A stretch of 62,507 bases of DNA, filler included, from Basidioascus undulatus (taxonomy: Eukaryota): NCBI GenBank assembly GCA_000826855.1. It is 3 parts of 3 records of this genome, joined end to end, with 100 filler letters (N's around TTAATTAATTAA, not from the genome) between each part and the next. Parts side by side here need not be neighbours in the genome. Positions count along the whole stretch, not along the records: positions 41,758 to 62,507 come from JTLS01000361.1; 2 more parts are not named here. One strand, 5' to 3'. The notes beneath the pieces are model-generated. The model saw only the letters and a list, made by a program, of their open reading frames with translations. It made no database searches and was not told where the DNA came from. Position numbers and translations under genes: made by a program. This document shows positions 1-62,507 of the stretch, one piece after another (position 1 is the first letter of the stretch; each line of letters begins with the position of its first letter).

Positions 1-5
1 TGGGA

Positions 6-3000
6 ATGTACGGGAACGCACACTGCTTCCGCACACAAGCGAGCCACTCCCCCCGCCGAAGCATCCTCAAGCCAGCGCCTGAGCCGGAGGAGCATACGGA
101 GTACTTCGAGCCCACCGCGACGGGCGACGAGATCCGCGCCCGGCTTGCCAGGAATGGGCCTAGGAAGAGCGAGGGGCGGCGGGGGAGCTTCGCGAGCCAC
201 TGCTTCATCCGGTGCGTCGTCCCCTATCTTTCCCCGCGCTTCACAACTCACAGTTTCGCGTCTCACCCACAGCCTCTTCGGCATCGACGACCCCAAGTCG
301 CCCGAGCCATCGAGCGACCCGCCAGGGACGCCCGAGGGCGCGACCGTCCGCACATCGCGCCGCCGCTCGAGCACAGGCTCCGACATGGACATCGCAAACG
401 ACGACATTACCGCCGCGTTCCAGCCATTCCTCGCATCCTCCTCCGCGTCGCCACCCGAGGACGAGGCCTCCTCCGATGCCGAGGGCGAGGACGACACCGG
501 CGCGATGGACCTGACCGAAGCTGTCGGGGGAATCCTCTCCAACTCCACCACCGACCCCGGCCCCTCCTCCCCCGCTCGGCTCTACCCACCCATTCCAGCC
601 TTCTCCTTCTCCCCCACCGCCTCCGAGCTCGGCTCGCCTGCGCGCCCCGCCCCGCCGCCCCCACGCGCGCACTCCGGCCTCTCGCCCACGTCGTCCGAGT
701 TCGAGGAGGACTCGGACGGGAGCGGGAGAGACAACGAGAACGAGGAGCAGACGATGGACTTTACGCTCGCGATGGGGAGCATCATCCCGAACTCGGAGGG
801 GCAGGCCGAGCTCGTCGGCGCCGTGCGCGCGCAGCTCCCGCCCACGTTCAGCCACTCGCCGGGCAAAGGAGGGCTCAAGAGGTTCTCGCTCGCCCAACCC
901 GCGCAGGAGGCGAGCTGCAGCGAGAGCGAGAGCGACGGGGAGGACATGGACGAGCAGACGATGGACGTCACGCAGGCGGTCGGGGGGATCCTCTCGGTCG
1001 GGGCGGCGGCCGCGCGCGACGACGACGAAGAGGGCAGCGAGAGCGAGGACGAGATGGACATGGAGATGACAGGCGAGGTCTCCATGGACGTGACAAAAGC
1101 CGTCGGGCAGGGGATCCTCTCCGTCTCCACCCACGCTCCTGCTCCCGCGTCCGCCTCTAAGTCCCCGCGCCGCGCATCTACATCTACCACCGCGACGCGC
1201 TCCGCACGCTTCTCCGCACCGACCGCCGCGTCCCTCGCCCGTTCTTTGCCGGCATCGACTGTCCCCCCTCCCGCCGCGTCCAAGTCTTCCCGTCGTCGCG
1301 CGTCGACCGCCGCCGCCGCCAACGCCAGCGCACCCATGTCCCCGCACAAGCCCCAGCTGCCCGTCTTCGTCGCCTCCCCGCTCAAGCGTGTGCCGGCGCC
1401 GGCGCTGGCAAGCCCAACCAAGAACCGCAACGCCCCCAGCTCGCCCTCCAAGCCCTCTTCCTCCTTCTTCCCCTCTCCCAAAAAGCCCATCGCCGCCCTC
1501 GCGGCCGCTGACCCATTCCAGGCGCCCTCGCCCTCCTCCCTCGCCGCCCGCCCTAACGCCCCCTCCTCCCCCTTCGCCTCTCCCATTCCGTGCCACGTCC
1601 AGTCACCCCTCCGCCCGCCCCCGAATTCAACGCCGACGACGAGCCGCATCGCCACAACGCCCCGCAAGTCGCCTGCGCCAAAGGCGACGACCCCGCGCCG
1701 CACGGCGCCGAAGGAGTTTGCCGCCGGCGAGGAGGCGGAGAAGGTGCTGGAGGGACTGCTTGCGGAGGATGAGGATGCGGAGGCGGAAGGTATGGGTAAC
1801 TGGGACGAGGTGGGTCCCCAAATTCCCTTTCACTGTCTCCCAACCGCGGCATCCACGACCACTGACAAACTCCCTCGCACCCGATTGCAGGAGCTCCCCG
1901 ATCCGATCTCGCTCTCCGATTTCCTCGAGATGACCGACATGCGGTTCATGGACGGGATCGCGAGCGTCAAGCGGCGCTCGACGCTCGGCGGCCACCACGC
2001 GCTCGAGTTTGCGACAACCGCGCGCGCGCCGTACCCCGACACGCCTGGAGGTGCACCCGGGCTAGTCGATTACGTAAAGGCCGCGACGGTGACCGTGCCT
2101 CAGCTGGAGATGATGCTTTGGGTGGGTCGTCTTCGCTCCTTCTTCTTCTGATAGACAGGCGGACTGAGGAGCTGAAATGGTGATGGTGGGGCGGTAGTGC
2201 TGCCAAGAGCTGAAGCGGTACATCGCGGAGGGCGCGGAGGCGATCGCAGGGTACGAGCGCGGCGTGGAGGAGATGAACCCGCCGGTGATTGTGGACTACC
2301 TGCGCGCGGACGACGACTACCGCGCGCGGATCGAGGCGCAGCTCAAGATCGTCAAGCACCATTCGCGCCTCGACGCCAAGCGCGTGTGGTACACGTGGAG
2401 GCGCGAGCTCGTTCAGAACCACCGCGAGAGCTTGGAGGCCGCGTGGGAGAATCTGCAGACGGTGCGTGAATGCCCCCATAGAGGACAGCTGAAGAGGACG
2501 AGGGAGCTGAGATGGATGCGCGGCGGATGGGACAGGACAAGGAGGTCATCCAGCTCGGAAGGCAGGAAACGAAGGCAGTCCTACCCGAGCTGCAGGCGCT
2601 TCGGGACAAGCTCAAGCTCGAGCTCGAGAAGGAGCGTAAGGTCGTGCAGGACCTCGCTGAGTGCGACCAGGAGCACCTTGTGGGGCTGAAAGAGGCCATC
2701 GCCGAGCAGTCGTGCGTCTCCCGTTTCTTCTCCACCGTGTCTTTTTCCGCTTTCTCTCTCCTCTGACTGTGATGTGGCGTGATGTGCGGTGCTGTGCAAC
2801 AGGCAGCAAATCGAGGCGTACCGGGCCGAGAGCGCGTCGAACGCGGAGGAGCTCGATCGGCTCAACGCGCGCGTGCAGGAGAAGCGGGACGCGATCGACG
2901 CCGTGCGCAACTCGATCGCCGCAAACCGCGCGGAGTGGGAGAGCGTGAATGGGTGCACGAAGCGCGAGGCGATGCGCAGACTAGGTGCGTTTCTTTCTAC

Positions 3001-3885
3001 TCCGCGCCTTTCCAAATTTTGCCCTTTCGCAGGAGCACGAGAACTAATATGCGTGGCGGAAATGGTCTCAGCCGAATTCGAGCGCCTTCAAGACCTGTTC
3101 CTCTGGCGCCCCACGAAGCTCACGCCCGAGCGCATCGAGATGGTCTATGACCGCGAGCTGGCGTTCGCGTTCGACACGCAGGGGCGCTCGCTCGAGCTCA
3201 CGCTCGTGAACGAACAGCCGCGCAAGGATGGGCTGGGCGCCGTCGATGAGTTTGCGCTCGGCCGCCTGCAGGCGGCGGTTGAGGATGAGGCGCTGGCGCA
3301 GAAAGGGGTGCCGCAGGTGAATTCTTACGCCTTTCCTCCTTCCCTCGTTCGCTTCAGGAACGGGCTTGACGCTCATCATACTTTCACCAAACAGATCGTT
3401 CAGCGTCTCACCGCCCTCTGGATAGCCGCCCAGCGCGCGCGCGAACAAGTCGCGCTCCTTCTGACGCGTTATCCGCTCAAGTTCGAGCCGGTTCCCACTA
3501 GGTCGGCCTTTGTTGTCAAGGCGACCGTCTTCCTTCCCAAGACGCGCGCGAAGTTCATCCTCTTGCTCGTCCTCCCTGCGGACGTCCTCACGGACTGGCC
3601 AGGCTCAAGCGCGGGGATCGAGGTGCGGGTAAAGAAGGCGTATGGCGCTATTGAGTACGTTTCCTGGTGGCTCTCGTGCATAGAGATTGAGGCTGATGGC
3701 GCTCGCCGGCAGGGAGGACAAGCTGCTTCAGGCTGCAACGGCGCGCACCGCGAAGGCGCAGATGCAGGGCGTGTTGCTCGACGCGGCGCTTGACGCTGTT
3801 GCTTGCTGTGCGTCGCACTTCCTCGTTATCCCCCTATTTACTGCACTTGCATGTTGACGCTCTCTTTCATCTTTCAGATGAATGA
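6..3885 (+). CDS. SPC105: Kinetochore scaffold Spc105/Spc7/KNL1, multi-exon; true 5' end uncertain at window edge
   Basis: RRSILK (SILK at 60-71) and RRGSFASHCFIR|LF across intron 212-272. MELT-like repeats MDLT/MDFT/MDVT/MEMT/MDVT, then Ser/Pro-rich disordered region, Spc7-type 'ISLSDFLEMTDMRFMD', coiled coil and RWD-like C-terminus. Last short exon ends TGA 3883-3885. Confidence 0.9.
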
Positions 3886-22462: not shown

Positions 22463-23657
22463 CTACCACGGCACCGCCTTCCCCGCCCAATCCTTAAACG
22501 CCCCGCTCTCGCTCTCCTCCAGTTCGCTGACCACGTCCAAGAGCTTGTCGGAGGCCTGCTCAGGCTTGAACACGCCCTCTTCCGGCTTAGGCTCCCCCGA
22601 GACGTAGTCGCGCGAGAGGTTGGAGATGACGGTACCTGTTAGAGCGAGTATGACCGCCAGTAGGTCAATGGGGGGAGGACCGATGGGGGAGGGGGGGAGA
22701 ACGCACCAGGGTGGTACGCAAGTGCTGCGGCGGGCAAGTTGCGCAGACGCAGCTCGCGGGCGAGCGAGACGATGGACTGGTTGACTGCGGCTTTGGACTG
22801 GGAGATCGTCATGCAAGAATCAGCTGACAATTCCAACGGTCGAAAGAGTTCCCAGGAATCAACCGAGCGGTAAGAGTACCACCTGCACTCCCAAGCAACG
22901 ATCAGCTCCGCTTTCCAACCGCGACAGAGATGCAGCGGGCGGCTCACCCGCCCTTCCTGTTGTCGCCAATGCTACCCACGCGGGCGCTCATCGATGCCAA
23001 AACGGAGAGACCAGGCTTGATGGTCCCTTTTGCGGGGTCGTCCTTCGTGGGCAGGTCTGCCTCGCGGCGGGGGAGGAGGTGGATGAAGCGCTTGTACGTG
23101 AGGAGGTGGCCGAAGTGGTTGATGCGGAAGGAGCTGACGAAGACAAAGCGAGTTAGCGCGGGCACTGAAACGCAGTTTAATAAACGCAAAACTCACTCGA
23201 AAAGGTCCTTCTCCTCCAGCGACGCAATATTCTTCTCCACCCTCAACTGACCCCCACGCTCTCACATCAGCTTCCAACCTCCCACTCCCCTCTTACCAGT
23301 CAAAACTGACGATCCCCGAAACATTCAACAAAAACCTCAAGCTGCCCTTTCCAAACTCCTTCTCCACTGCCTTTGCAGCATCGCGGATCGTGTCCTCCTG
23401 CTTGACGTCCAGCTCGAGGGACGTCAGGCGCGAGGCGGACGCGTTGTCCAGGCCTTCGAGGATCGCACGGCGGCTCTTGGAAGGGTCGCGCGAGGTCGCG
23501 ACTACGCATAGGTCGGTCTTTTGAAGGAGCGCGCGGGAGACGGCAAGGCCGATCCCTGGAGATAAGGGGGTGAGGGAGGAGGCAGCGGCGGCGGAGGAAG
23601 GAGCAGCGGCGTACCGGACGAGGAGCCTTGGATGAGGGCGACCTTGGCGAGAGACAT
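22463..23657 (-). CDS. SDR oxidoreductase, CsgA/C-factor-like
   Basis: VALIQGSSS|GIGL, LELDVKQEDTI, LLNVSGI, INHFGHLL, SARVGSIGDNRKGG|WYSYRS|SKAAVNQ, AYHP|GTV, AFKDWAGKAVPW*. Confidence 0.9.
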
Positions 23658-26444
23658 TATAAGGGTGTAGTTCTGGTATGCGGCCTAAAGTGTGTTTGAA
23701 GTATGCTGTATAGAGGAGGTGAAAGATGTGCAGGAGGAAGTAAACGAGCAGGCTCGCTTTGAAGGGCGCAGGCAGCTCGTCGATCGCGCTGCCGAAGTCT
23801 CGACATTTCGTCATTTGGCGACGATGCAAAGTCGCTGCATCGCTCGCCCGCGCTACGCTGGGATCCTGTCTGTCGACCCACTCAATCGATCGCGTTACGG
23901 GACCATCATGGTGTTGCGGTTGAAGATCAAGGCGAAGCGATGCGGGCAATCGCCAATCGCGCGGACGCGGGAGATTTCGCGGAAAGCATGCACCCTGCAT
24001 GCAGTTCGTCTCTTCATGGACGTGCCCGGGCCGACCAAGCCAGCGACGGCGTGTGGTTGCCTTTGGCCAGTACACAGAACCTCGTGTCCTCATACTCGAT
24101 GAGAATATGATGTCCCAATGTCCCCAGACCTCCGCTTGTCCCGACGAACCGCGACCGCGCAGGCTGCAGGCCTGCAGCGATGAGGGTTCCTTTCGGCTTG
24201 TAAAGGGGCATGCGAGCTATATAAGGCTACCACCAGTCGGTTAAGAGAATATCTCATAGGTGTGTTGCATGCAATCTGTGATCTGAAGCTGCACAAGTAC
24301 GCTGGACTGGCTGATCCGCGTCCCAGGCAAATTGGAAGGGTTGCAGAGACCATTCATGCACGAACATGCAAGACAACATGCAATGGACAAGCCGCAGACT
24401 TGATGCCAATACCTTCTTACTTAAGGAAAAGATGGGACCTGTAGGTCGACTCCCCGATACCAATCGAGAGTGCACCGCCAGTCATGTACCCAGGACCCTC
24501 ACCTTCTTTGGACGATGTAGCGCGCCTGGTCGGCTCATGCCTCGCGCGCTGGTTGGCGGCGTCAACGACAATGGAAGGAAGCGCGAGTTGAGCAACATTG
24601 GAAGACTGTCTACAATGCAGGAGCGAGTGACAGGACGTCAGTATCCTCGTCCAAGCAGGTGTGAAGCATTGCAACGTGCGACGGGAGAGGCGCTGAGATG
24701 GGATCAGCGGACATGGATTTCTAATCCGCATGAGCCTGAGGCTCTCGGAAGAACGAAGGTAACAGATAAAGAAGTTGTTCTGCATCACGTCCCGGGGCGC
24801 CTCCCTTCCCGTCTGCACAAGAGCGGCTGAGGAGCGCGGACTCACCTTGGGGTCGAGGAGTGCTCAACGCGCTTTTAGTCCGCTAGCCCTGAAAGCGGAA
24901 GATCGGGTGATGCCGCGCTAGGGGCCATGACGAGAGTTGAGGTGAAGAGAGGAAGGAAATGGAAGTTCGGTTGAGTGGGGGGAAGTATGAAAAGGTCAAA
25001 GGAGGACAAGCCTCGAGAAGAGAGCAGACGGGCGCGCAAAGCTGTAACCCTAACCATTTCAACACAGTCGTCCACATCTTCAATCCATCATCTCCAAAAG
25101 TATATGATCAAGGTCGAGCATGACAGATAAGCTCCTTGTGTCCCATTTGTATTGTAGCAGCGAGACAGAAAAACCCCGAAGAAGCGCAAGTGATCAGTGG
25201 CCATGCGTAGCCGTGGGGAGTACAGTCCAGTCAGCGATGCAAATCTGGCCAGGATCAGGAAAGACCCCATTGCTGAATTTTAAAAAACACATTGAACAAT
25301 ACCGGAGGGAGCCTGGTTTGAGAGAGAATGACTGGCGAACAAGTACAAGCAGCCACTCGCGGTGATTCTGGCCGTTCAGCCTTGGGTTTGGAGTCCCATC
25401 GGAGTATTGGCAGGCTACGAAGAGCACCTCAGCTATGAAAGTACGTATATAGATGCACCTAATACTTAACCTTGTACAAACATGGCAAGGCAGTTGCGGG
25501 AAGGATGTTTCTGCAGGCCATCGGGTCAGTAGCTGAGAAAGCACTTCCACAGCCTAACGCTTATCGCCTTGTGTTGGGGAGTTGGTGCATATAACCCATC
25601 AAACTCACTGGCCTCAAGAAATTTCCCCGGTTCTGAAATTTATCCATCGGCCTGTAGCTGCGTAGGCGCTCATACGTTCTGTAGTCCAGAAGGGCTCCGC
25701 CTGTAATATCCCTACACGGTGCTGCTAAATTGACCGTGCTTCGCCCTTGACGATTCATGAGAATTCAGAAGAGAGAGAGAATTAAGATTGTCTGAAAAAC
25801 GCACAATTGGACGACGAAGACAGCGTGTCCTGCCTTGCCTGCTTGCCTTGCTTGTCGAGCCCACCCGGAGCAGGGGCTTCAAAATCTTGGGTAGAGGCGG
25901 CTCTCGTGCGTAGATAGATATATTTGGGGTTATTCTGCCTCAAAAAAGCCTTCCCCATCTTTACAGATGGAAGAGGTCCAGCCGAAGTAACGTGCGAGAG
26001 AAACCGACCAGTCTGATGGCATGGTTGCGAATGGGGTGTCAGAGCCTTAGGCCAGTAGTTACATTAGAGAAGGCTTCCATTGGGGGCCTATTAAATCTAT
26101 ACTGTTTGGATTATACCAGTGTGACCGTGAAAAGTCGTTGTTGGAAAGGCACACAGTGTGTCACGGTGAGTGTTGCACAGCAGCATAGCAGGCCTTCCGC
26201 ATAGCAGTGGCCGTGAGCGGGTTTAAGGATCAATCTTCATTTTCTGGCCTGCTAATTTCGATGCATGTCCACCATCAGCCCATCAAGTTCATAATCGAAC
26301 GTCGAAAGAAACACTTTGCAGAAATCGACCCGCGGCAATTCCGTGGATAGCGAACTCCCACGAAAGTGGGAAGGGTTTCACCTGCAAGCCGCTTGGTTTC
26401 GTCCTCGTCGTCCGGACGCTCGTTGTCGCCATCGTCCTCACAAA

Positions 26445-29400
26445 ATGTCGCAGCATCACCATAGACCAACGCTCAAACAGGTACGTAGGCGGTCTGACTC
26501 CCTCTCAGGAGGTCGCTCGCGGCTGAGCCTGCTGTTCGCCTACAGAGCAACAAAAAGTACAAGCCGTCCGGTGGCCATTCGTCCAAGGGCTCCCTACGCG
26601 ACGCCGCCAAGGGCCGCATCGCGCGCACGGCACCCAAGTCCGGATCGCGCGGGCAGAAGACGGCTGCACAGACCAAGGCCGAGCGCCGCAACACGGCAAA
26701 GCAGGTCCAGAAGCAGAAGCGTGCCGAGCTCGTCCAGGGCGCGAGGGTGTTCGAGGGCCGGAACGGCGCACCGAGGATCGTCCTCGTCCTCCTGTTGACT
26801 GAGGACGTCAGCGGGGCGGCACTGGCGAAGGGCCTGGCGGAGGCGGCGGGCGAGGAGTGGGACCAGATGGATCAGCAGGGCGTACGGAGCCTCAGGTGCG
26901 TCTTCTAAATGTCCTGGTAGACCTTTCCCCACTTCATAGCTCACGAAGTTGGATTGCAGGGTCTCCCGGTTCTCCCAGTCTCTTCAGCTGCTCCTGCCTC
27001 CTTTCCCCTCATCCGCACCCTCCCCCTCCGCCGCGTTCCACGCCATCCTCGACGCCGCCAAGATCGCCGACTATATTATCCCTATCCTCTCCGCGACGAC
27101 CGAAGTCAGCGCCTGGGGCGAGACCATCCTCCGTTGCGTGCAGGCGCAAGGATGTGGCGAGGTTGTGAGCGTCGTCGAGGTGCGTTCCATCTCGTCCATG
27201 TCCCATCACCTCCAAACTCCGCGCAGCTTTCTCATGAGCGTCTTCCCTGCACGAGCAGGGCCTGAACAACGTCGACTCCAAATCGCGCACGGCCACGCGC
27301 GCCTCCCTCCTCTCCTTCATCCGCTACTTCTTCCCCTCGCAATCCAAGCTCGCGTGTCTCTCGCAGCCCTCGGAGATGGCGAACGCCCTGCGGTCCATCT
27401 GCACGGGCTTCCCGAAGGCCCCGAGCTGGCGCGAGGGCCGGACGTACCTCGTCGGCGAGGATCTGGAGTGGGACAAGGTCGAGGGGCTCGAGGGCGGCCT
27501 GGTCCTTGGCGGGGAGGACGGCGAGAAGGGCACGCTCAAGGTCACCGGCGTTGTCCGCGGCGAGGCGCTCAACCCCAACCGCCTCGTGCATCTCCAGAAC
27601 TTCGGTGATTTCCAGCTGTCGCAGGTGTGTTAATTATCGCATTCGAACGGGCTCTGGACATCCCATGATACTAACGCCCCCGTGATCAGATCACCCCCGC
27701 ACCCCTCTCCACGTCTTCCCGCGCCCCGCAAAACTCCATGTCCGTCGACGCTTCGTCCGCGTCCACCGTGCTCGCGGCCCCTGCCGCTGAGGACCAGGAC
27801 GACCTCGTTTCGGAGAACGACCCGGACCTGCTCGCGAACGAGCAAACGTGGCCGACCGAGGAGGAGATGGCGGAGGCGCCGGCCGCGCAGGCGAACGGCA
27901 AGGGCAAGGGCGTCGTCCGCCGCGTGCCCAAGGGCACGAGCTCGTACCAGGCTGCGTGGATTGTGGACGATGCGGATGAGGATGAGGAGAGCGAAGGGGA
28001 TGAGGACGAGGAGGACGAGGAGGGGATGGAGGAGGACGGGGAGGAGGATGGCGAAGAGGGCGAGGGGGAGTTTGAGGAGACGGAGGAGGTGGAGGTCGAG
28101 AGCCGGGCGGGGGAGGCCTTTGAGGATCTGGACCCGGAGGAGGAGGAGAAGCAGTGCGTAACCTTCCTCCGGAGACGTTTCGGGCGCGTGCTCATTCCAG
28201 CTCTCTATTGCAGATTGCAGGCGTACCTCGCTGAAGCGAAGGAGGACGAGGCATTCCCGTGCGTACACGTTCACGCTCCTGTTTTCTTCACCTTTTCGAA
28301 GCTGAAGATTCTTTTCGCGTACTACAGCGACGAAGTCGACACGCCGCAGCACATCCCCGCGCGCGAGCGCTTCGCGCGCTACCGCGGTCTCAAGTCTTTC
28401 CGGACGTCCCCGTGGGACCCTTACGAGAACCTGCCGCTGGACATGGGCCGCATCTTCGAGTTTGAGGACTATGCGGGCATGAGCCGCCGTGTGCTGCGCC
28501 GTGCATGTGAAGGCGGTGAGGAAGGGGATGTCCAGGTGAGTTTGGTTTGCATTTCGGACAAATAGCCGCGCGGTTGGGCGAGAGCTGACTAGTGTCCGTG
28601 GGACATGGCTAAAAAGGCTGGAACGAGGGTCACCCTGCACATCAAGGGCGTCCCGAAGGCCGTGCTCGACTCCCGCGACCGGAATCTGCCGTTCCTCGTC
28701 TTTGGCCTGGTACGTTATCTTCGCGTTCTTTCAAATCCTAAGGGGTATCTGAAATCTGGCGTGCGCAGCTACAACACGAGAAGAAGAAGTCGGTTCTGAA
28801 CATGGTGATTCAGCGCAACACCGAGTACGACGGAGTTGTCAAGTCGAAGGTCTGTCTATCCCCAATTCTGCGTTCACGTATCGCTTAGCTGACAACCGCC
28901 CCGCTCGTGTTACGCAGGACCCTCTCACTCTCCTCTTCGGCCCGCGTCGGCTGGACGTCCGTCCGCTCTACTCGCAGCATCTGCAGGGTGGCAAGACGGT
29001 CAACAACGTGCACAAGTTTGAGCGCTTCCTCCGCCACGGCGACGCGCACGTCGCGACCATCTTCGGTCCCGTCGGCTGGGGCAGGCTGCCTGTTTTGCTG
29101 CTGCGCGATATGGGCGAGAGCGAACGTGAGTCATTGCTCGGCAGACTCCCGCACGCGGCTGAGCGCAAGTTGGCTGACCTTTTGTGTCTTCCTCGTGACG
29201 CTCAACAGCTCCCTCTCTCGTCGCTACTGGCTCCCTCATGAACGCCGACCCGACACGCATCATCGCGAAGCGCATCATCCTCTCCGGCGCGCCGATCAAG
29301 GTCCACCGCAAGACGTCCACCATCCGGTACATGTTCTTCAACCCGGGTGAGTTGCCATTTTCCCCAATCATCAGCGTTGATCCGGTTTAGTTGACATATT

Positions 29401-50271: not shown

Positions 50272-52281
50272 ATGTTCTGCTCAAGCACGTCCTATCCGCC
50301 GTCTTCTACACGCTGCGCGCTATCTAACGATGTCGGAACCCCCCTGTAGTCTCCGGCGAGCCCCCACAGCAGCCCGTCGTGTCCAAGAAGAGCGGGCACG
50401 TCTACGAGCGTCGGCTGATCGAGAAGTACATCACCGAGAACGGCAAGGACCCTGTCACCGGCGAGGAGCTGTCCACCGATGACCTCCTCGAGCTCAAGAC
50501 TGGTGAGTCGGCGCGTCGAGCGGGGGACATGAGGAGAGCGGGCGCGCGGGAAGGCGCGGGGAGACGCGTTGCGTTCAATGAGACAGAGTACTTCTGGGTA
50601 GTTTGAGCGAGACTCTGTTGTGCATGGGGTTGCACAGACTCAACACGCGGGCGATAGCGCCGTTCGCTACGCGTGGACAAGTTGCTGACTTTCCCATCTC
50701 TGCCGTGTCCCAGAGTCCAAATCCGTCCCGCCTCGTCCCCCTACTCTCTCCTCTGTCCCCGCCCTCCTCTCCACCCTCCAGGTCGAGTGGGACTCGCTCG
50801 TTCTCGAATCGCAGTGCGTCTCCTTGCGCCTCTGCCTTCTTCGATTGCCACACTCACTCACACCTCGGTTGGTCTCAGCACTCTCCGCGAGCAGTACACC
50901 ACGACTCGGAAGGAGCTCGCGCACGCGCTCTACCAGGTTGATGCTGCGCACCGCGTCGTAGCTCGTTTGCTGCAGGAGCGGGATCAGGCTCGGGAGTGCG
51001 TCTGCTTTCTCCCCTTGCAGGGTGCCAAAGCGTGTGCTGACACGAAGCTTCCTTTCAGAGCTCTTGCCAACATTCAGGCGAACCTCGGCGTGGCGCCGGC
51101 GCCGGCAGCTGCCCCGTCAGCAGGCGACGTAGAGATGGAGGATTCGGCGGCGGCGGCGGCGGCGGGTGGTCTTCCCGCGGCGGATGTTGCGAAGATTGAC
51201 GAGCGGTCGAAGACGTGCGTATCGCTTCTCTCAATCAGGCTTTGCGTTGGATCGGGAGCTCACTCGTATGGCCCACAGCCTTTCTGCTTTGCGCAAGAAG
51301 CGCAAGGTCCCCGAGGGCTACGCTACCGCCGAGTCGATCTCGTCCTACACCGCCAAGGAGACGCTTCCTTCCTTCCACTCCCCTTCCCCGCCGGGCATCA
51401 CCGACCTCGCGCTCTCCGCGGACGGTCAGCGCTTCCTCACCGGTGGCGCCGACAAGCACGTGCAGATCTACGACCGCGCCTCGAAGCAGACTGTTGCGAC
51501 GCTCAAGGGCCACACGAAGAAGGTGAACCGCGTCGCGTGGCGCGAGGCCGAGGGGCGTGAGACGCTCGGTCTCTCCGCGGGCGACAAGCGCGTGCGCATC
51601 TACCACGACACGGGCGACAAGGGTTGGAAGCTTGCGTCGGAGATCAAGACGCACAAGGGGGAGGTGCACGGTCTTGCGGTCCACCCGGCGCACGACTACG
51701 CCATCTCGGCCAGCGCGGACGAGACTTGGGCGGTGCATTCGATCGAGGACGGTTCGACGCTCGTCAGCGCCGGCAAGCTCGACGGCGTCGACGGCGGGTT
51801 CAGCTACACCGCGCTCGGCGTTCACCCTGACGGGCAGATCCTCGGCGCGGGCACGGCAGATGGCTACCTCCGCATCTGGGACGTGCGCACCGCGCAGCAC
51901 GCGCACAGCTTCGCGCCGAGCGCGGGCAGCGCGGGCGCGCTCCACACGCTCTCCTTCTCCGAGAACGGCTACTACGTCGCGTCCGCCACGGCCGAGTCGT
52001 CGATCGTCCAGCTCTGGGACCTCCGCAAGCTCAAGGACATCCACGCCATCGACCTCGGCGAGGGCTACCGCGCCAACGCCGTCTCGTTCGACGCCGCCGC
52101 GCAGTTCCTCGCCGTCGCCGGCACGGACCTCCGCGTGTTCGCGAACAAGACGTGGAAGGAGCTCGACCGGTGGGAGGACGCCGCCGCGCCCCTGCAGGCT
52201 GTTGCCTGGGGCCCCGACGGGAAGGAGATCGTCGCTGCCGGCCTGGACCGCACGGTCCGCGTCTACGGCCAGCGGGAGTAG
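50272..52281 (+). CDS. PRP19: Pre-mRNA splicing factor Prp19 (U-box E3 + coiled coil + WD40)
   Basis: MFCS|ISGEPPQQPVVSKKSGHVYERRLIEKYITENGKDPVTGEELS, PPRPPTLSSVPALLSTLQVEWDSLVLE, RKELAHALYQVDAAHRVVARL, and WD40 repeats in the last exon. Confidence 0.97.
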
Positions 52282-52704: not shown

Positions 52705-53862
52705 ATGCCTCTTCGCCTTGTGACCGAAGTTCTCAACGAGCAGGATCCTGGGATCGTTCGACCCGCCCGCTTCGATCCGGAGGCCCACAACAGGCCCCTC
52801 CCTGTTCCCATTTCTAATGGACTCGAGATACCTCCTCACGGTGCCGCTATAATAGACGACCAGTGCGAGTTCAGACAGGTCTTTCGTTAGGACCTGCAGG
52901 TGGATCAAGTCATCATCGTTGTTTGCCTGTTCGATCGCGTGCTTGTCATCAGGCAGTGGGTGCTGGCAAGACTTATACTCGATTTGCGATGGCCTGTTCT
53001 CGCTTCACCACACCTCTAGCGAGCTCCCAGAGCTGCTGCTGGTGCCACTGGGGTTCACCGAAGCTGCGCACACCCTTAGCAGCAGCAGGGCATCAATGAA
53101 GTGCGAGAATCCGGCAAGCGGTCATCCAGCGCTTGCAAAAGATTTCTGGTGGGCCCCATCCGTTCATGGTGGAAGTCGATCCGGACATCGTCGTCCCAAT
53201 TACAGCCTGCGTGACAGGTGACGTAGACGGCACAGTTACGGTGCTTCTGCCCCCGCCTGCAGCCGACCGGCTCTTACGCTTGTTCATCCCGAGCGACAGT
53301 GACCCCATGCTCAGCCAGGCGCGAGCCCTCTATCTTCGTGTACTGTGATTGCCGGCGTACATCTCCAGCAAACAGATGGCAACCTGGTTAATCTTTGATC
53401 GTAGTCGTCTTCCTCCGCCGCCGCCTCCCGACTTCGTCTCGCGCCTTTTCCTGCGCAGTGCCCGCTGTGACGAGCCACAGTCCTGCCGTTACAACCTTCT
53501 GAAGAGTCTGGTTGCCGAATTCAGTGAAGATCTGGATTATTCCATGATCATGGATCTCATTACACCTCTTCTGGAAATACTGGAGCGGCTCACTGACATC
53601 GGGAAGTCTTGGTGCGAGGTCTGCGGTGCTCCTTGCAACTCGATGTGCAAAGGTTGCTGGGGTGCGACGTACTGCTCGAGGAGGCATCAGCGGGAAGACT
53701 GGCCTAATCATCGGGAGGTACGTCTGGGCAGTCGGAGATGTCCATCCTTCTTCCAGCTCACCTTGTTGCGTGCGTCTTTTCCAGTGGTGCAAGGCGATAC
53801 GGCTACCGGGAACTTCTCAGTCAGCTGGTTTCGCGCAGGGGCTATGGAAAGAGTTTGGGTAA
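52705..53862 (+). CDS. MYND-type zinc finger protein
   Basis: CEVCGAPCNSMCKGCWGATYCSRRHQREDWPNHRE|WC matches MYND spacing near the C-terminus. Upstream exons are unrecognised and the start is tentative. Confidence 0.65.
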
Positions 53863-56800
53863 GAGGCGGTCGAAGGGAGAGCAATTGAAAAGTTGAACAG
53901 CTTGCGTGCCATGCATCCACTGTAGGACTGTCAAGGCACACGGACTGCGCCGCTGCCTCACGGGTATCACGGGTAAGATCAATTTTGTAGGCGTCGGCAA
54001 GTCCTGTTGATGCACCTTCAGGGGTTTGCCAGCATCGCACGTTGGTTGACCTAAAAGTCCATACACAGGTGTCAATTTGGGCGCGACTGGGACATTTATA
54101 GAGCCTACGAAAGAAACACGAGAGACTCACGCCTGTGCCGTTCATTCTATCGTGCTGACTATGCGATGCCGGCGAGCGAGGTAAGCAGCTTCTGGACATT
54201 CCGAAATCTTGTCTTTTTGCAGCCAATACGTCAACTGGTTCTCGATCCCGTCGAAAGTAAAGCGACAGGTGATTGCAGTCTTCAAGGACAGTGAAAACAA
54301 TGCTCAGCTTGAGGTTCACTTTTTTTTCGGAAGACTAAGCGCACCTTTCCTGTTGCCTTGAACGTCGACCGTGCAGCCTATCAAACGGTGCCTTCGGTTC
54401 GTGTTGCAATTAGCACGCAATGAGATCAAGCGTTGAGGATTGGACAGGGAAGTGTTCTTACAGGATGTACATCAACCATCTTCCAGAATCGAAGCCCTGG
54501 ACAATTAACCCAATTGACGCGAGCACCGAGAAATTCGAGAATGGGGCCGCCCAGTGGCTCAGCGCACCTCAATCGAAGCCTTGACGAAGTCCTCGAGGGG
54601 ACCCTGTTTCCAGCTCGTAGTAATGTATGCATCCTCGTGGAACATTGAGCTGCTCTCCCTAGAAGGAGAGCAGCTCGTTCAGGATTCCAGTTGGATGCCC
54701 AACGATGTCTAAGGCGCACCGGTAGTTGTCCCACTCAGCCGCAGCGCGGTACATCCCCCAGCCCTCGACGATCTCCCGGATCTTCCAGCCGTCCAGCGCG
54801 TCCCCATCACATCCGATACAGTTGTTGCGCGAGGCGGCTACAGGTCGCGTTTCGATCGGTGTTGATGGGTTGGGCAAAGGTCATGCTGCGGAGATCGGTT
54901 CGAGGTGGAGAATGGGCGAGCAGTAAGCGCTGTGGCACCGCGCCGGAACCGTAGGAGGGTGGGAGCAGACGCTCCGTAGTTGAGAACAGCCAACCGGGGC
55001 AGCCTCGTTAGAGTTGTGTGAGCAGTGCGGGTACGAAAGGTAGAAGAGGAAGACGGCGTGAAAGCCAGAATGCGCTATTCCTTTATGACCAGAACTGGAT
55101 CGAACGGGCATGTGCAAGTCTCACACCAAAGGAATCTCACGCCTGGATGAGGTCCAAGGTAAATATATCACCTGTCAGACTCTCCGTGATCGGCAACCGC
55201 TGCAGCGCAGGCCACGTTGCGAAGACGCGAGTGATCGAAGGCGCTGCTGTATACCGCTCCCCGGCTCTGTTGTGCAGACCGCCTGAACTTCGGGGATGCC
55301 TTCGTGATTGGTACCTTCTGATGCACGTTGCATTTTCTGTGGGTTGCAGTACATGTCCTGTATGGTCACCACCGACAACAGCTGCTCCAGCGCAGCTGCC
55401 ATGCTGTACATGCCGGTGCACTGGGATAGCGAGGCTCACGTCCAGACTCCAGACGAGTGGGAACTTCAGCGTGATCAATGCTCTATAAGGTTAAACACTG
55501 TACAATGCAATGCCGGACTTGACCGCTCCATCGTGGTCATGAGCTGGAAGACTTGGCAGTCTCCGCGTGGTATGCCTCACCAACGGCGAGACCGCGCGCG
55601 GCAGCGCCAAACGCTTGGGACTATTTGAAAACAAACCCGACTGTCAGTGAGTGCATTGGGCGAAGCAGTGAAGGGAAAAGACAACTGGCGTACCCCAAGG
55701 TCCTCGTCAATCTTCTCTCCCTGGGATCGCACGACCTCAACGATCTTTGCACGTTGCTCCTATACCCCCGGCCCATCCAACCTCGTCAGATGCCGTCCAG
55801 TTCCGACATTCCCAAGGACAGTGGCCACTCACCGCAAGCGCCTCCAGGTTCTCCACCGTCTTCTTGTCGACCGGAGCCTGCACCCACCACACGCCCTAAT
55901 CAGCTCTCCCGCTCAATCCGGAAATATGAAAAAACAGCGTACACCAGCCTCGGCAGCCAGGCGCGCTGCCTGGTCGACGAGCTGGGCATTGACAGACTGC
56001 GAGGGGAGCGTGTGAGTGAGCTGAGCACGCCGCCCCGAACCTCACATTCGTGGCGAGCAACAACGCACCTCGAGAGAAGCGGACATGATGCGGGCTATGG
56101 GACTGGATGAATGGGAAGGGGCTTTTGTGTGAATGCCGATGCAGATGCGAGTGCGAAGTGAGTGAGTGGTTTGAGATCAAGAAGTGCAAGCTGCAAGCAA
56201 GCGAGAAGACGACCGACCGGGCTCTTGAAGCGGCCCGGACGCTGATCATGATCACGAGCACGCCCAAACGTGTAACAATGCAACGTCATCTGCCAGGCCG
56301 ATTAGCGACTATGATGCAAGGTGCAGCTGCATTTCGCCGTGCGAGCTGCGATGTCAGCGCAGGTGGAATTGGTGGAATGGAGGGCAAGAAGTCTAAGGTG
56401 GAGGGTGCGGGGCCACGCGCGCAGCAGCAGGTTCCCGGTGAAGCCCGCTCCGCCTCCGGTTGCTCCTGAGGAGTCCGGAGGTTCTTTTTTTTTTCCACAT
56501 CGCAGAGCACGCACCTTGCCGTCAAAGCAAGTCAAAGAAGAGCATGCACACATCCGAGTCAACGCGAAACGGCTTGCAAGTTGCAGACGAAAGTCATGAC
56601 GCAGTCAACGCAGTTGCACGCTCATTGCAGCTTGCGTGGTTTCAAGTTTGTTTCAAGTAACCGGGCCCGCGGGCGGCCGGCAAAGCGGCGGATGCGACTG
56701 TTTGGGTGTCCTTAAGGGAGTGTGTGTGCAACTGTTCCGGAAGAAACGCTGGAGTGATGGGAAGAGTGTGGTGGCGACCAAGCGAAAGTAGGTGAGAAAG

Positions 56801-58677: not shown

Positions 58678-61600
58678 ATGCTGCCCCTCGCCCAATTTCA
58701 ATCCCACTCCCATACCACACCCTCCCCGCCCCCTCGCACTTCCTCCCTCCGCCCGAGCCCCCCACCTCCAGCCCTCCCCGCGCCCGACGCGACAGGCGGT
58801 CTCGCCGGCGGCCCGCCCGGGCAGGTCCAGCTCGACCCGGCCACTACAGGCGACAGGGACTGGGCAGAGACGGCGAAGGAAGTTGCAGGTGCTGTGGGCG
58901 TGGGCGTCAAGGACCTCCTCACCCAGGCCGAACCGTTACTGGAGATTGTGCCTGTGCCGGCGCTCGGGACGGCCGTGAGTGTGCTGCTGAAGGCTTGGGA
59001 ACAAGTCAATGTGCGTTACCTTATTCGTCATGTCTTTCTTTCTTTGAGAACGCACCAAATGACCGGCCCTCTGGGGGAGCAGCAAGTCAAAGACCAGCGG
59101 CACCAGTGTCTACGCCTGATCGCGCGCGCCGCGTCGCTCCTCCGTGCCGTACAGGCACAGCTCGCAGCTTCCTCAGGCGCGCGGGAGAGCCTCCCGGAGG
59201 CCGTGCAGGAGAACGTGCGGCACTTGGAGACGTGTGTTGTCAGTTTCAGATCAGTTGATGTGGGAGACTGAATCGGGCGGTGGACTGGGCCTTGCAGGAC
59301 CCTCTTCGACATCCAGGTGTTTGTTGGGAAGCAGGCGAGCAGGCGCTGGCTGAAGCGGTACTTGAAGCGCGGAGACATCGAGGGGATGCTGGCCGAGTGA
59401 GTGTCTGTCTTCACCCACTCCTATTCTACTGCATCGCCGAACTCACCCCCTTCCCTATTAAGGTACAACGACCGCCTCTCGACCCTTGCACAGCTCTTCG
59501 ATGTTTGTACCCCTTCCTTCCTAACCTCCCCCTGTCCCTGAATCCTTCCCCCTCACACCTCACACATCCCCCTCTCCTACGCAGGTCCAATCCCACCTCG
59601 CCCTGCACCTTCGCCTCGCCCAAGATGCGTCTGACCGCGCGCGGGACCAGCGCGCGCTGTCCTCCCTCCTCCGCGCGTCGCTCTGCAACGACGCGCTCCT
59701 GCTCCAGCAGCTCGCGCTGCAGCATGACGAGACGCTCGAGGCGGTAGGGGCGATGCAACACCAGCTCGGGGCGCTCGTGTCCGCTTCCCACCGCCTGCGG
59801 ATCCTCCCGCATGCCCCAACGGGAGGGGCGCTGAGGCTGACGATGGGTGGAAGTGTCGGGGATGGGGAACGGGAGGGGGAGGGAGGAGAGGTGGAGCTGC
59901 ATCGGGCGTTCTTGGAGCGCGGGATTGGGGCGCTAAAGAGCTTGAGCGGCGGAGAGGAGAGGGAGAGGCTTCCGGATTGGACGGTCAGCAAGTGGGAGGT
60001 CGACCGGGACGAGCTCGTCGGGAAGGGATACTTTGCTGTACGTCCCCCCTCCGATGGGTTCTGGACGTGGATGGGCTGGAAGTCGGGTGCTGATGAGAGG
60101 CGTTGGGCTTCGTGGGGAACACAGACAGTCTACCGCGGCAGGTGGCGCGGCTCTGTGGTAGCGATCAAGGAGCTTGCGCCCGAGACGCCGAAGGACGTGC
60201 GTGTCTTCTCCGGTCCCCCATCGAACCGATGCATTTTCCAGGGAGCTGACGCGACAGCGGGGTCGTTTGTGGGCCGGGTCGGCAGCTCTTCCTCCGCGAG
60301 ATCAGGATCTGGCAGACGCTCAGGCACCCGCACATTTGCCAGTTCGTCGGCGCGTCGTCCGCGACGGCCAACCCGCCGTGGCTGATCGTGTCGGTGTTCC
60401 ATCGGTGCGTGCGGGTACTTTTCATTCTCCCTTCGCTTCCTTTTTTTGTACCACTCCCCCTTTGCCTTCTACTGCCTGGTCCTTTCATGGCTCGGAAAAG
60501 GCGCTGATACGTCTTGGGCTTGGGGCGGGGCACTTTGCAGGAACGGAAACGCGTTGACATGGTTAAGGGCGAACCCGGGCGCGGGGCGTGTCCGGCTCAT
60601 GCATGAGATCGCGCTCGGGATGGCTTACCTGCACGACAGCAAGGCGCGTTATCCTTCGGCTCCTTTCTTTTCTCGAACTCGCAGTCTGATATATGTTGCG
60701 GCGTCCCGAACGCAGGTCCTCCACGGGGATCTCAAGGTCCGCCTCGCCCTTTGAAGAGCGATATCGAGAGGCGGCTGCTGATTACGAGAGGGAGCACAGG
60801 CGACCAACGTCCTGATCTCGGCGGAGGGCACTGCGATGGTCACGGACTTCGGGCTGTCTGAGCTCCGTCTCGAAGGCACGCACCTTTACCTTGCTGTGCT
60901 GTTCACCACAGGAGCTCCTGCTTACGCATCCGCGCTCCCAAAAAACGTTGCCCCACAGTCGCCCGCAGGTCGTCCCCGCCGCTACCCGAGCCGGGCGCCC
61001 TCCGCTGGCGCAGTCCCGAGCGCATGGCGGATGGCGCGCTGGAAGTGCCTGTGGATGTACGTCATTATATGCTGCGAGGATGACAAAAGTGGGCTGAGCA
61101 GAAGCTGATTGGGGGGGCGGGATCGGGCGATTAGGTCTACGCGTTTGCTATCACCGCCGTCGAGCTTCTCTCGCTGCAGGTCCCGTTCGGGCACGTCACG
61201 GACGAGAGGGTGTATCAAATGGTCGTTCGTGCGTCCTTCCGGTGTGTTACCCTTCACAACCACTGGAAACTGATTCATTTGCATGATCACCAGACCACGA
61301 CTCTCGGCCCGCGCGGCCCTCGCACTCAGAGCTGTCCGACGAGCTTTGGGACCTGATCGCGCGATGCTGGACACGCGTGGCCGCCTCGCGCCCGTCCTTC
61401 TACTCGATCGCGCAGGAGACGCACGCGATGCTCGGCGGCCGCGTGCCCTCTCCCGAAGTCTACCGCCGCGAGTTCCCCGCTGGCGGTGAGGGCTCCGGGA
61501 TGGGCACGGTCGCGTCGAGGGTCTCGAATGCGAGCTCGTCGGACGAGACGTTCCGGACGGCGGAGACGGAGATTGCGTGGGGGCACACGCAGATGGAAGT

Positions 61601-62507
61601 TGATTTGGAAGGGGAGAGGGGCGGTTCGGATGTGGAGGAGACCCCAAGGACTGCGTGAGTTTCTGTGGGACTTGCTTGAGCTGGGGACATATGCTGACAG
61701 GGCGGGTCGGTCTCAGGCTATCTCCGCTTCCCCGAGTCTCCTTCATCCAGCTCGACGAGGACCCCCCGCGCTCTTCGACCGACTCGTTCCGGATCGCGCG
61801 CAATCCCTCGCTCAGCCCACTGTCTTCCCCGCCCGATACGCCTCCACAGCCGATGTCTTCTCTCCCCTCCCCGCCCTCGCGCGCGGCGGACCGCTCCCCC
61901 TCGGGCCGCTCGCACACGAAGGACGCCAAGGTGTACGCGCACTACCTACACACGTACGAGTTCGACCCCATCCTGCGCACGCCGCTGTGGCAGCCGAGCG
62001 CGGACATCCGCATTGGCGACGTCGGCTTCGTCCGCGCGGGGCGGTTCACCCCGCTCCTCAATGCGTGCGATGAGCTTGCGGTGCTCGGGGCGCCGGCACC
62101 GTGCGAGGTGATCGAGACGACGAGGGAGGTGCTAGGCGGTCGGTCCGCTGCGCAGCGGGGGTTCGAGGCGATCTTTAAGGGGTTGGGAGGAGGGCATCGG
62201 AAGGGCTCGGGGGGAAAGCAGGGCGGGTGAGTGGCTGTCGGGCTGGCGTTTGCAGGAGATCGGCTGACGCTGTGGACGGGATAGGTGGGAATCCTCGAAG
62301 ACGTTCAGGCTCCCGTTGGTGCCAGGCAAGAAGCAGGCGTGCTTGCTCACGAGCACGTCGACGCTCGAGCTCGCGACGGACGCGAAGGCCGCGAGGGAAT
62401 GGTTCCAGGGCGCGGCCGGATACGTGCTCATTGCGTTTGGTGCGTTGCTGAGCGGGCGGATGGGTAGGGTATGCGCTAGCGCACGCTGGCTGACATTCTT
62501 TCGGGGT
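58678..62507 (+). CDS. TKL-family kinase with N-terminal MLKL-like helical domain and C-terminal possible gasdermin-like domain; 3' end beyond window
   Basis: N-term VPVPALGTAVSVLLKAWEQVN|QVKDQRHQCLRLIARAASLL...RWLKRYLKRGDIEGML. Kinase GKGYFA|TVYRGRW, VAIK, LRHPHI, HGDLK|ATN, DFG, GALRWRSPE, D|VYAF, CW...RPSF. C-term PLWQPSADIRIGDVGFVRAGRFTPLLN. Confidence 0.88.

Follow-up and report, generated by a model that had tools for sequence, protein, structure and literature searches.

A predicted MLKL-type kinase gene of Basidioascus undulatus extended by a C-terminal domain of no recognisable family

What kind of protein is encoded by the split gene on the plus strand at the 3' end of a 62,507-nucleotide stretch of DNA (the window) from the fungus Basidioascus undulatus (NCBI GenBank assembly GCA_000826855.1), and does it unite two cell-death effectors around one kinase? 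The window consists of three joined parts, and the gene takes up the last 3.8 kb, high-GC DNA (0.59-0.70), of the part that comes from JTLS01000361.1 (positions 41,758 to 62,507). An earlier note had read this locus as a single spliced open reading frame (ORF) for an MLKL-like N-terminal domain, an active kinase of the tyrosine kinase-like (TKL) group and a domain with a possible gasdermin/RCD-1-like fold, and all sequences that it quoted are found on the plus strand where it had placed them. The reading that explains the evidence best, and to which we give somewhat more than even credence, is that the locus is a single nuclear gene, from an intron-rich fungus with high GC content, for a multidomain protein of the MLKL type. 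From its N-terminus this protein would consist of a Pro-rich leader, a HeLo-like/MLKL_N helical bundle, a spacer where MLKL has its brace, a kinase, a disordered Ser/Pro linker and a C-terminal globular domain, laid out as follows.

58678..62507, plus strand: the entire gene up to the window end, with 15 exons and 14 short introns; its 3' end lies past the window
58678..58857, plus strand: Pro-rich low-complexity leader by composition, residues 1-60 with 25% Pro; coding score 0.168, weakly positive
58858..59670, plus strand: helical domain of about 180 residues, probably of the HeLo-like/MLKL_N four-helix-bundle type; 3' part of exon 1, exons 2-4 and start of exon 5
59671..59992, plus strand: spacer of about 110 residues, placed like the brace of MLKL, within exon 5 and including a Gly/Glu-rich stretch
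59993..61445, plus strand: protein kinase of tyrosine kinase (TK)/TKL type by motifs, Pfam and PDB matches, residues ~345-598, spread over nine exons
61446..61933, plus strand: Ser/Pro-rich linker of about 140 residues by composition (17% Ser, 13% Pro), interrupted by intron 13
61934..62462, plus strand: third domain, about 157 residues seen, from residue 743, broken by the intron 62227-62284 and cut by the window end

Coding signal and the probable unity of the gene

Is this DNA coding throughout, and in a single frame? In the frame of the model the G+C content of third codon positions (GC3) lies between 0.74 and 0.95 in all 15 exons. A codon log-likelihood score, trained on 1,192 codons from other, Pfam-supported genes of the window (Prp19 among them), takes its highest value, always a positive one, in the model frame in each of the 18 exon segments; it is about zero or negative in all four introns tested as well as in two upstream stretches, and negative in most exon segments for the alternative frames of the plus strand, which is the strand that was scored. 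Moreover, none of the seven long ORFs that lie in alternative frames or on the opposite strand across the locus matches a Pfam family. Within the third domain the per-codon scores are 0.586, 0.232 and 0.436, with negative values in the other frames, and the two exons concerned have a GC3 of 0.84 and 0.88. Because these codon scores match those of the kinase exons, the third domain is real protein-coding sequence and not a chance open frame in GC-rich DNA.

The model itself was assembled by hand from a six-frame listing and the sequence. It starts with the ATG at 58678, the only upstream in-frame ATG, at which the leader begins, and reaches about 62462; a further likely donor about 45 bases short of the window end indicates that the gene is incomplete. 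Translation of the model gives 899 stop-free codons which, together with the uniformly best score of their frame, agrees with the prediction of three domains in one spliced ORF.

58678-59010, 59083-59231, 59298-59396, 59463-59502 and 59585-60037, plus strand: exons 1-5 of the hand model
60125-60196, 60286-60404, 60541-60643, 60716-60736 and 60800-60866, plus strand: exons 6-10 of the hand model
60959-61056, 61135-61228, 61294-61654, 61717-62226 and 62285-~62462, plus strand: exons 11-15 of the hand model
59011-59082, 59232-59297, 59397-59462 and 59503-59584, plus strand: introns of the helical domain in the hand model

The introns are 58-136 nt long and lower in GC than the exons. All 14 end with AG (11 CAG, one AAG and two TAG), and 13 of them start with GT, the remaining one, at 60644, with GC.

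Do the kinase and the third domain belong to the same gene? The answer hinges on one canonical intron at their junction and on an ATG that follows it.

61655-61716, plus strand: intron 13, between kinase and third domain; donor GTGAGT, branch-like site CTGAC, acceptor CAG
61853..61855, plus strand: in-frame ATG within exon 14, at which a second gene could begin if there are two genes

When intron 13 is spliced the frame remains open and phase-compatible, and when it is not spliced a TGA at 61656-61658 terminates the protein. In the latter case a kinase gene would stop at this TGA and a small downstream gene for the third domain would start at the ATG at 61853. Such an ATG is indeed available, and chance-open frames are common in high-GC DNA, with three overlapping ORFs of 137-319 residues in this stretch; however, the donor, the branch-like site and the acceptor of intron 13 follow the consensus and resemble those of the other introns, and their use leaves precisely this frame open. 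In favour of two genes, the linker is of low complexity and its coding score, which is 0.407 ahead of intron 13, drops to 0.114 past it, over the 45 codons that precede the ATG, yet even these weakly coding codons score best in the model frame (0.114 versus -0.28 and -0.25). In addition, two genes would have to fit a terminator, a promoter and both untranslated regions into 194 bases. On balance a division into two genes appears distinctly unlikely, and judged from the splice signals the kinase and the third domain are very probably parts of a single gene.

As a separate observation, two long open frames overlap this part of the gene, one of 319 residues at 60982-61941 on the minus strand and one of 238 residues at 61357-62073 on the plus strand; such frames are typical for GC-rich DNA.

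Kinase and N-terminal helical domain

How firmly can the two domains that would make this an MLKL-type protein be recognised? For the kinase, the motifs are found in the expected order in the model, GKGYFA(TV) at residue 353, VAIK at 370, HGDLK at 459 followed by ATN, DFG at 479 and SPE at 504, and they are accompanied by the alphaC glutamate in FLREIRIW, by DVYAF and by the C-lobe arginine. Pfam was scanned, here as for the other domains, with exon-sized or unspliced read-through pieces. PF07714 matches exons 7, 10 and 13 in colinear order (profile positions 48-81, 130-150 and 225-256) with 16.7, 13.9 and 15.4 bits, which add up to about 46 bits as compared to a whole-protein cutoff of 23.1; each single match stays below its cutoff, given exon lengths of only 7-40 residues. 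In each of these three exons PF07714 scores at least as well as PF00069. The best sequence matches in the PDB are the TKL kinase CTR1 (E=6e-4) and, among receptor tyrosine kinases, PDGFR-alpha (E=0.0024), and a PDB search with exon 8, the following intron and exon 9 gave nothing at E<=0.01. The domain lies C-terminal to the helical region and the spacer, as in the layout of MLKL, and with VAIK, HGDLKATN, DFG and SPE intact it does not share the pseudokinase character of animal and plant MLKL. The kinase is thus apparently catalytically competent and TK/TKL-like, as the earlier note had proposed on the grounds of its intact VAIK, HGDLKxxN and DFG.

Three features of the gene model concern the catalytic centre and the activation segment.

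60644-60715, plus strand: probable GC-AG intron; no alternative GT donor preserves the frame
60716-60736, plus strand: micro-exon of 21 nt for the catalytic-loop residues VLHGDLK, directly after the probable GC-AG intron
60867..60958, plus strand: intron in the activation segment with uncertain donor, either a poor GTCTCG at 60867 or a GC donor at 60876

Both donors of the last intron keep the frame and differ by three residues. If the model is real between 60644 and 60736, the catalytic Asp of the kinase hinges on two unusual splice events being carried out correctly.

Does the helical domain belong to the MLKL_N/HeLo superfamily? The leader in front of it has no Pfam match. Exon 2 matches a single Pfam family, PF22215 MLKL_N, with E=0.0076 and 16.2 bits at a cutoff of 27, covering profile positions 17-61 of 142, and the read-through of exon 1, intron and exon 2 matches the same family with E=0.025. 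With a piece of 124 residues a language-model Atlas returned a Basidiomycota cluster at 0.92, Mucoromycota at 0.91 and a cluster with MLKL_N at 0.90, followed in lower rows by the related Goodbye family. A single-sequence AlphaFold model of 58858-59229 contains helices only as assigned by DSSP, but at a predicted local distance difference test (pLDDT) score of 49.2, too low for the model to be usable. Furthermore, residues 86-104 constitute the most hydrophobic 19-residue segment of the 899-residue model on the Kyte-Doolittle scale (1.77) and sit at the first core helix; they have the character of the membrane-inserting type of hydrophobic N-terminal helix known from HeLo and HELL domains, the activity of which depends on an N-terminal helix with transmembrane propensity, as stated in a passage of PMC10197012.

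Several points weigh against an MLKL-type protein, or at least call for caution. All Pfam matches of the protein are under the curated cutoffs, the read-through piece that finds MLKL_N gives an equally weak and obviously spurious match to SecM (E=0.036), and exons 1, 3 and 5 have no MLKL_N match in Pfam. Exon 2 has no sequence match in the PDB at E<=10 and hence none to the solved MLKL bundles. In the 0.90 cluster of the Atlas just 10% of the members carry MLKL_N, and with a consistency of two out of the ten best family-bearing matches the Atlas issues its own warning that the family call is probably wrong. The all-helical model includes 24 residues of translated intron. About 85 residues precede the hydrophobic helix, whereas the membrane-inserting helix of classical HeLo domains is found at the very N-terminus. 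Finally, none of the searches reported in this study retrieved a homologue for the protein or for one of its parts, and the splice junctions of the hand model are predicted from sequence signals only.

The sub-threshold MLKL_N evidence, the warning of the Atlas and the missing PDB match to MLKL would all suit an ordinary signalling kinase, that is a lineage-specific fungal TKL kinase with a generic coiled-coil or regulatory N-terminal region and no role in cell death. The surroundings would suit it as well: the genes recognised in the window (Spc7/Knl1, Tsr1, Prp19, a short-chain dehydrogenase (SDR) and a zf-MYND protein) are of the housekeeping kind, and the 29 long ORFs that were scanned, out of 138 listed for the window, include neither an NLR gene nor any other gene of immune type. 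However, MLKL_N had been predicted in the earlier note ahead of any search and then emerged as the only Pfam family of exon 2, a strongly hydrophobic first helix is typical of HeLo and HELL domains (a passage of PMC10197012), and the combination of a HELL domain with a kinase is known from fungi, according to the passing mention that it receives in a review (PMC12881547). An ordinary kinase seems rather unlikely to us. As for the MLKL-like domain of the earlier note, the helical model, the sub-threshold family match, the Atlas neighbour and the hydrophobic helix speak in its favour, and a match above cutoff is not among the results; taken together they make membership of the MLKL_N/HeLo superfamily probable. 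The spacer, which has no Pfam match, could by its position alone correspond to the brace of MLKL.

Linker and C-terminal domain

What lies beyond the kinase? The Ser/Pro-rich linker has no Pfam match. The third domain is not low-complexity; its composition is ordinary, and it contains the motif IGDVGF at 62012-62029. A start of the form 'IGDVG...F..LFN' may characterise an Agaricomycete protein family, which plays no part in our verdict.

Searches for relatives of the third domain came back empty. There is no match in Pfam at E<=1 and none in PADLOC at E<=10, and three sequence searches of the PDB at E<=10 gave chance matches alone (mitochondrial L3 and a phage tail protein). HMMER found no true homologue of a piece of the domain among 1.84 billion representative proteins, in a library so large that only fairly close relatives pass the threshold; three matches at E<=0.001 were rejected as compositional artefacts, as they are tandem-repeat proteins aligned in 5-8 stretches. 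Word-index searches for homologues were blank with exon 14 against longer proteins and with a 101-residue piece of the third domain at E<=10, and they were equally blank against longer proteins with exon 5 and the start of the kinase; since conserved kinase motifs are present in the latter query, these blanks carry little weight. Metagenome scans with the third domain and with the tail of the kinase retrieved no relative, the best Atlas score for the third domain (0.81) is under the level at which its recognition is useful, and no paralogue turned up when the window was searched with the model by tblastn. A single-sequence AlphaFold model of 101 residues of exon 14 starts with beta strands and is unusable at a pLDDT of 40.1. 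Since the domain is truncated and the proteome of the organism evidently not in the databases, the blank searches say little about its fold, and the third domain is best described as a predicted C-terminal globular domain of no recognisable family, with no detectable relatives.

Could it nevertheless be a pore-forming domain with a gasdermin/RCD-1-like fold, so that MLKL-type and gasdermin-type effectors are united around an active kinase? No tool result favours this; the low-confidence model does open with beta strands and the earlier note does liken the domain to fungal IGDVG-type proteins, but neither of these is a test. Pfam, which includes gasdermin, and PADLOC, which includes bacterial gasdermin, are blank at the thresholds given above, and none of the three PDB searches lists a gasdermin, while the structures 8JYY and 8JYZ of fungal RCD-1 are reported as deposited in a section of PMC12881547. 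Thus, the third domain has no similarity to gasdermin PF04598, RCD-1, HET-Q1 or bacterial gasdermins that Pfam, PADLOC or the PDB would detect. According to the same section of PMC12881547 fungal gasdermins, where described, are proteins that stand alone, measure about 244-278 residues and carry a short inhibitory tail, and more than 80% of them are clustered with protease genes. The domain in question differs from this type, as it forms the C-terminal part of a kinase protein of at least 899 residues and as the scanned ORFs include no protease family, with the downstream side lying outside the window. Moreover, Dataset S3 of Clave et al. 2022 (PMC8851545) has zero gasdermin homologues in all 27 of its Basidiomycota rows. 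A literature search found no paper that combines 'GDVG' and 'gasdermin', and in the supplements of PMC8851545 GDVG occurs in protease sequences only, the gasdermin list there consisting of accessions without sequences.

A gasdermin-like fold of the third domain hence appears extremely improbable. The corresponding claim of the earlier note finds no support in Pfam, PADLOC, the PDB or the 1.84 billion proteins searched with HMMER, and gains nothing from a model at pLDDT 40.1; its wider idea of a necroptosis-type and a pyroptosis-type effector in one protein is speculation, the gasdermin half of which is without support, and such a fusion is very improbable. In a more general form, the orphan domain could be a second effector or sensing module of an unrecognised fold family, in the boldest version a membrane-active domain, be it a gasdermin-like one that has diverged very far or one of another kind; we regard this as most unlikely.

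Among the scanned ORFs of the window only housekeeping families were recognised, as listed here.

1-3790, plus strand: Spc7/KNL1 kinetochore gene, inside which the window starts; a frame of 716 residues with three MELT-motif stretches (E=1.4e-20) that also matches Spc7, followed by the Knl1 RWD C-terminal domain
23296-24216, minus strand: fragment of a short-chain dehydrogenase
26940-28562, plus strand: Tsr1 ribosome-biogenesis GTPase-like gene with a Tsr1 G-like domain and RIBIOP_C, and with at least one intron
50658-52278, plus strand: Prp19 splicing factor gene with the Prp19 domain and WD40_Prp19 (E=1.3e-91)
53349-53885, plus strand: zf-MYND protein

The zf-MYND protein and the dehydrogenase fragment have no link to the finding. 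The style of the introns, the zf-MYND gene and the Atlas neighbours point to a probable basidiomycete as the source of the DNA.

Possible function and known MLKL-type systems

How might an MLKL-type protein of this composition act? All of the following is inferred. The helical bundle would be the effector that is targeted to the membrane, as in MLKL and in the fungal HeLo/HELL proteins, and the spacer and the kinase would keep it inactive. As the kinase looks active, unlike those of animal and plant MLKL, activation could be brought about by auto- or trans-phosphorylation, instead of by a RIPK3-like kinase that lies upstream and targets a dead one. For the orphan domain at the C-terminus we propose a role in sensing, in the binding of a partner or in regulation. 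If true, an intact catalytic centre in a fungal MLKL-type protein would mean a different and possibly self-activating control of a helical-bundle effector, and the added C-terminal domain, for which very large databases hold no relative, could be the input module of the switch. Should the tail indeed act as a second effector or sensor, the result would be a self-contained protein that senses, phosphorylates and kills, with the phosphorylatable Ser/Pro linker as tether; such a protein would have no described counterpart.

How does this candidate compare with the systems already described? With the fungal gasdermins RCD-1 and HET-Q1, as treated in PMC8851545 and in a section of PMC12881547, it has no more in common than being a candidate fungal cell-death module. 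It differs from them in that no sequence similarity is detectable, in that the domain compared is C-terminal in a long kinase whereas RCD-1 and HET-Q1 are stand-alone proteins of about 250 residues, and in that no adjacent protease gene is seen.

Animal MLKL shows the same order of helical bundle, spacer and kinase fold. It is, however, a pseudokinase that is activated by RIPK3 (established knowledge that is also found in a section of PMC12881547), whereas the present protein has VAIK, HGD, the catalytic Asn and DFG intact and continues into a Ser/Pro linker and a C-terminal domain; a direct sequence match to a solved MLKL did not appear in the PDB search with exon 2 (E<=10). In the plant MLKLs AtMLKL1-3 the kinase domains are without catalytic residues, as reported in part of bioRxiv 10.1101/681015, and wheat Pm13 (PMC10951266, PMC11297308) is a comparison system alongside them. 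The tail of the plant proteins is described as a serine-rich region only, whereas here a domain of at least about 157 residues that is not low-complexity follows past the linker.

The closest likeness is to the fungal HELL and basidiomycete MLKL_NTD-like (BaMLKL) domains. The combination of a HELL domain with a kinase or pseudokinase domain receives a passing mention in the review PMC12881547, and with such proteins as with BaMLKL (PMC9815663) the present one shares a helical bundle at the N-terminus, the first helix of which is hydrophobic; in the HELL-kinase case the bundle is followed by a kinase. BaMLKL domains have an extra N-terminal helix (Wojciechowski et al., PMC9815663, in the part concerned with it), and in the present protein too an extra helix may precede the bundle, the neighbours of which in the Atlas are fungal. 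The BaMLKL set published there was derived from NLR N-termini and short stand-alone proteins, not from kinases, and the membership of the present domain is weakly supported. A literature search gave no description of a HELL- or BaMLKL-kinase protein with a further C-terminal globular domain. Most likely, then, the gene encodes a protein of a kind already known, a fungal MLKL-like kinase, and what sets it apart is that a disordered linker and then an orphan domain follow the kinase.

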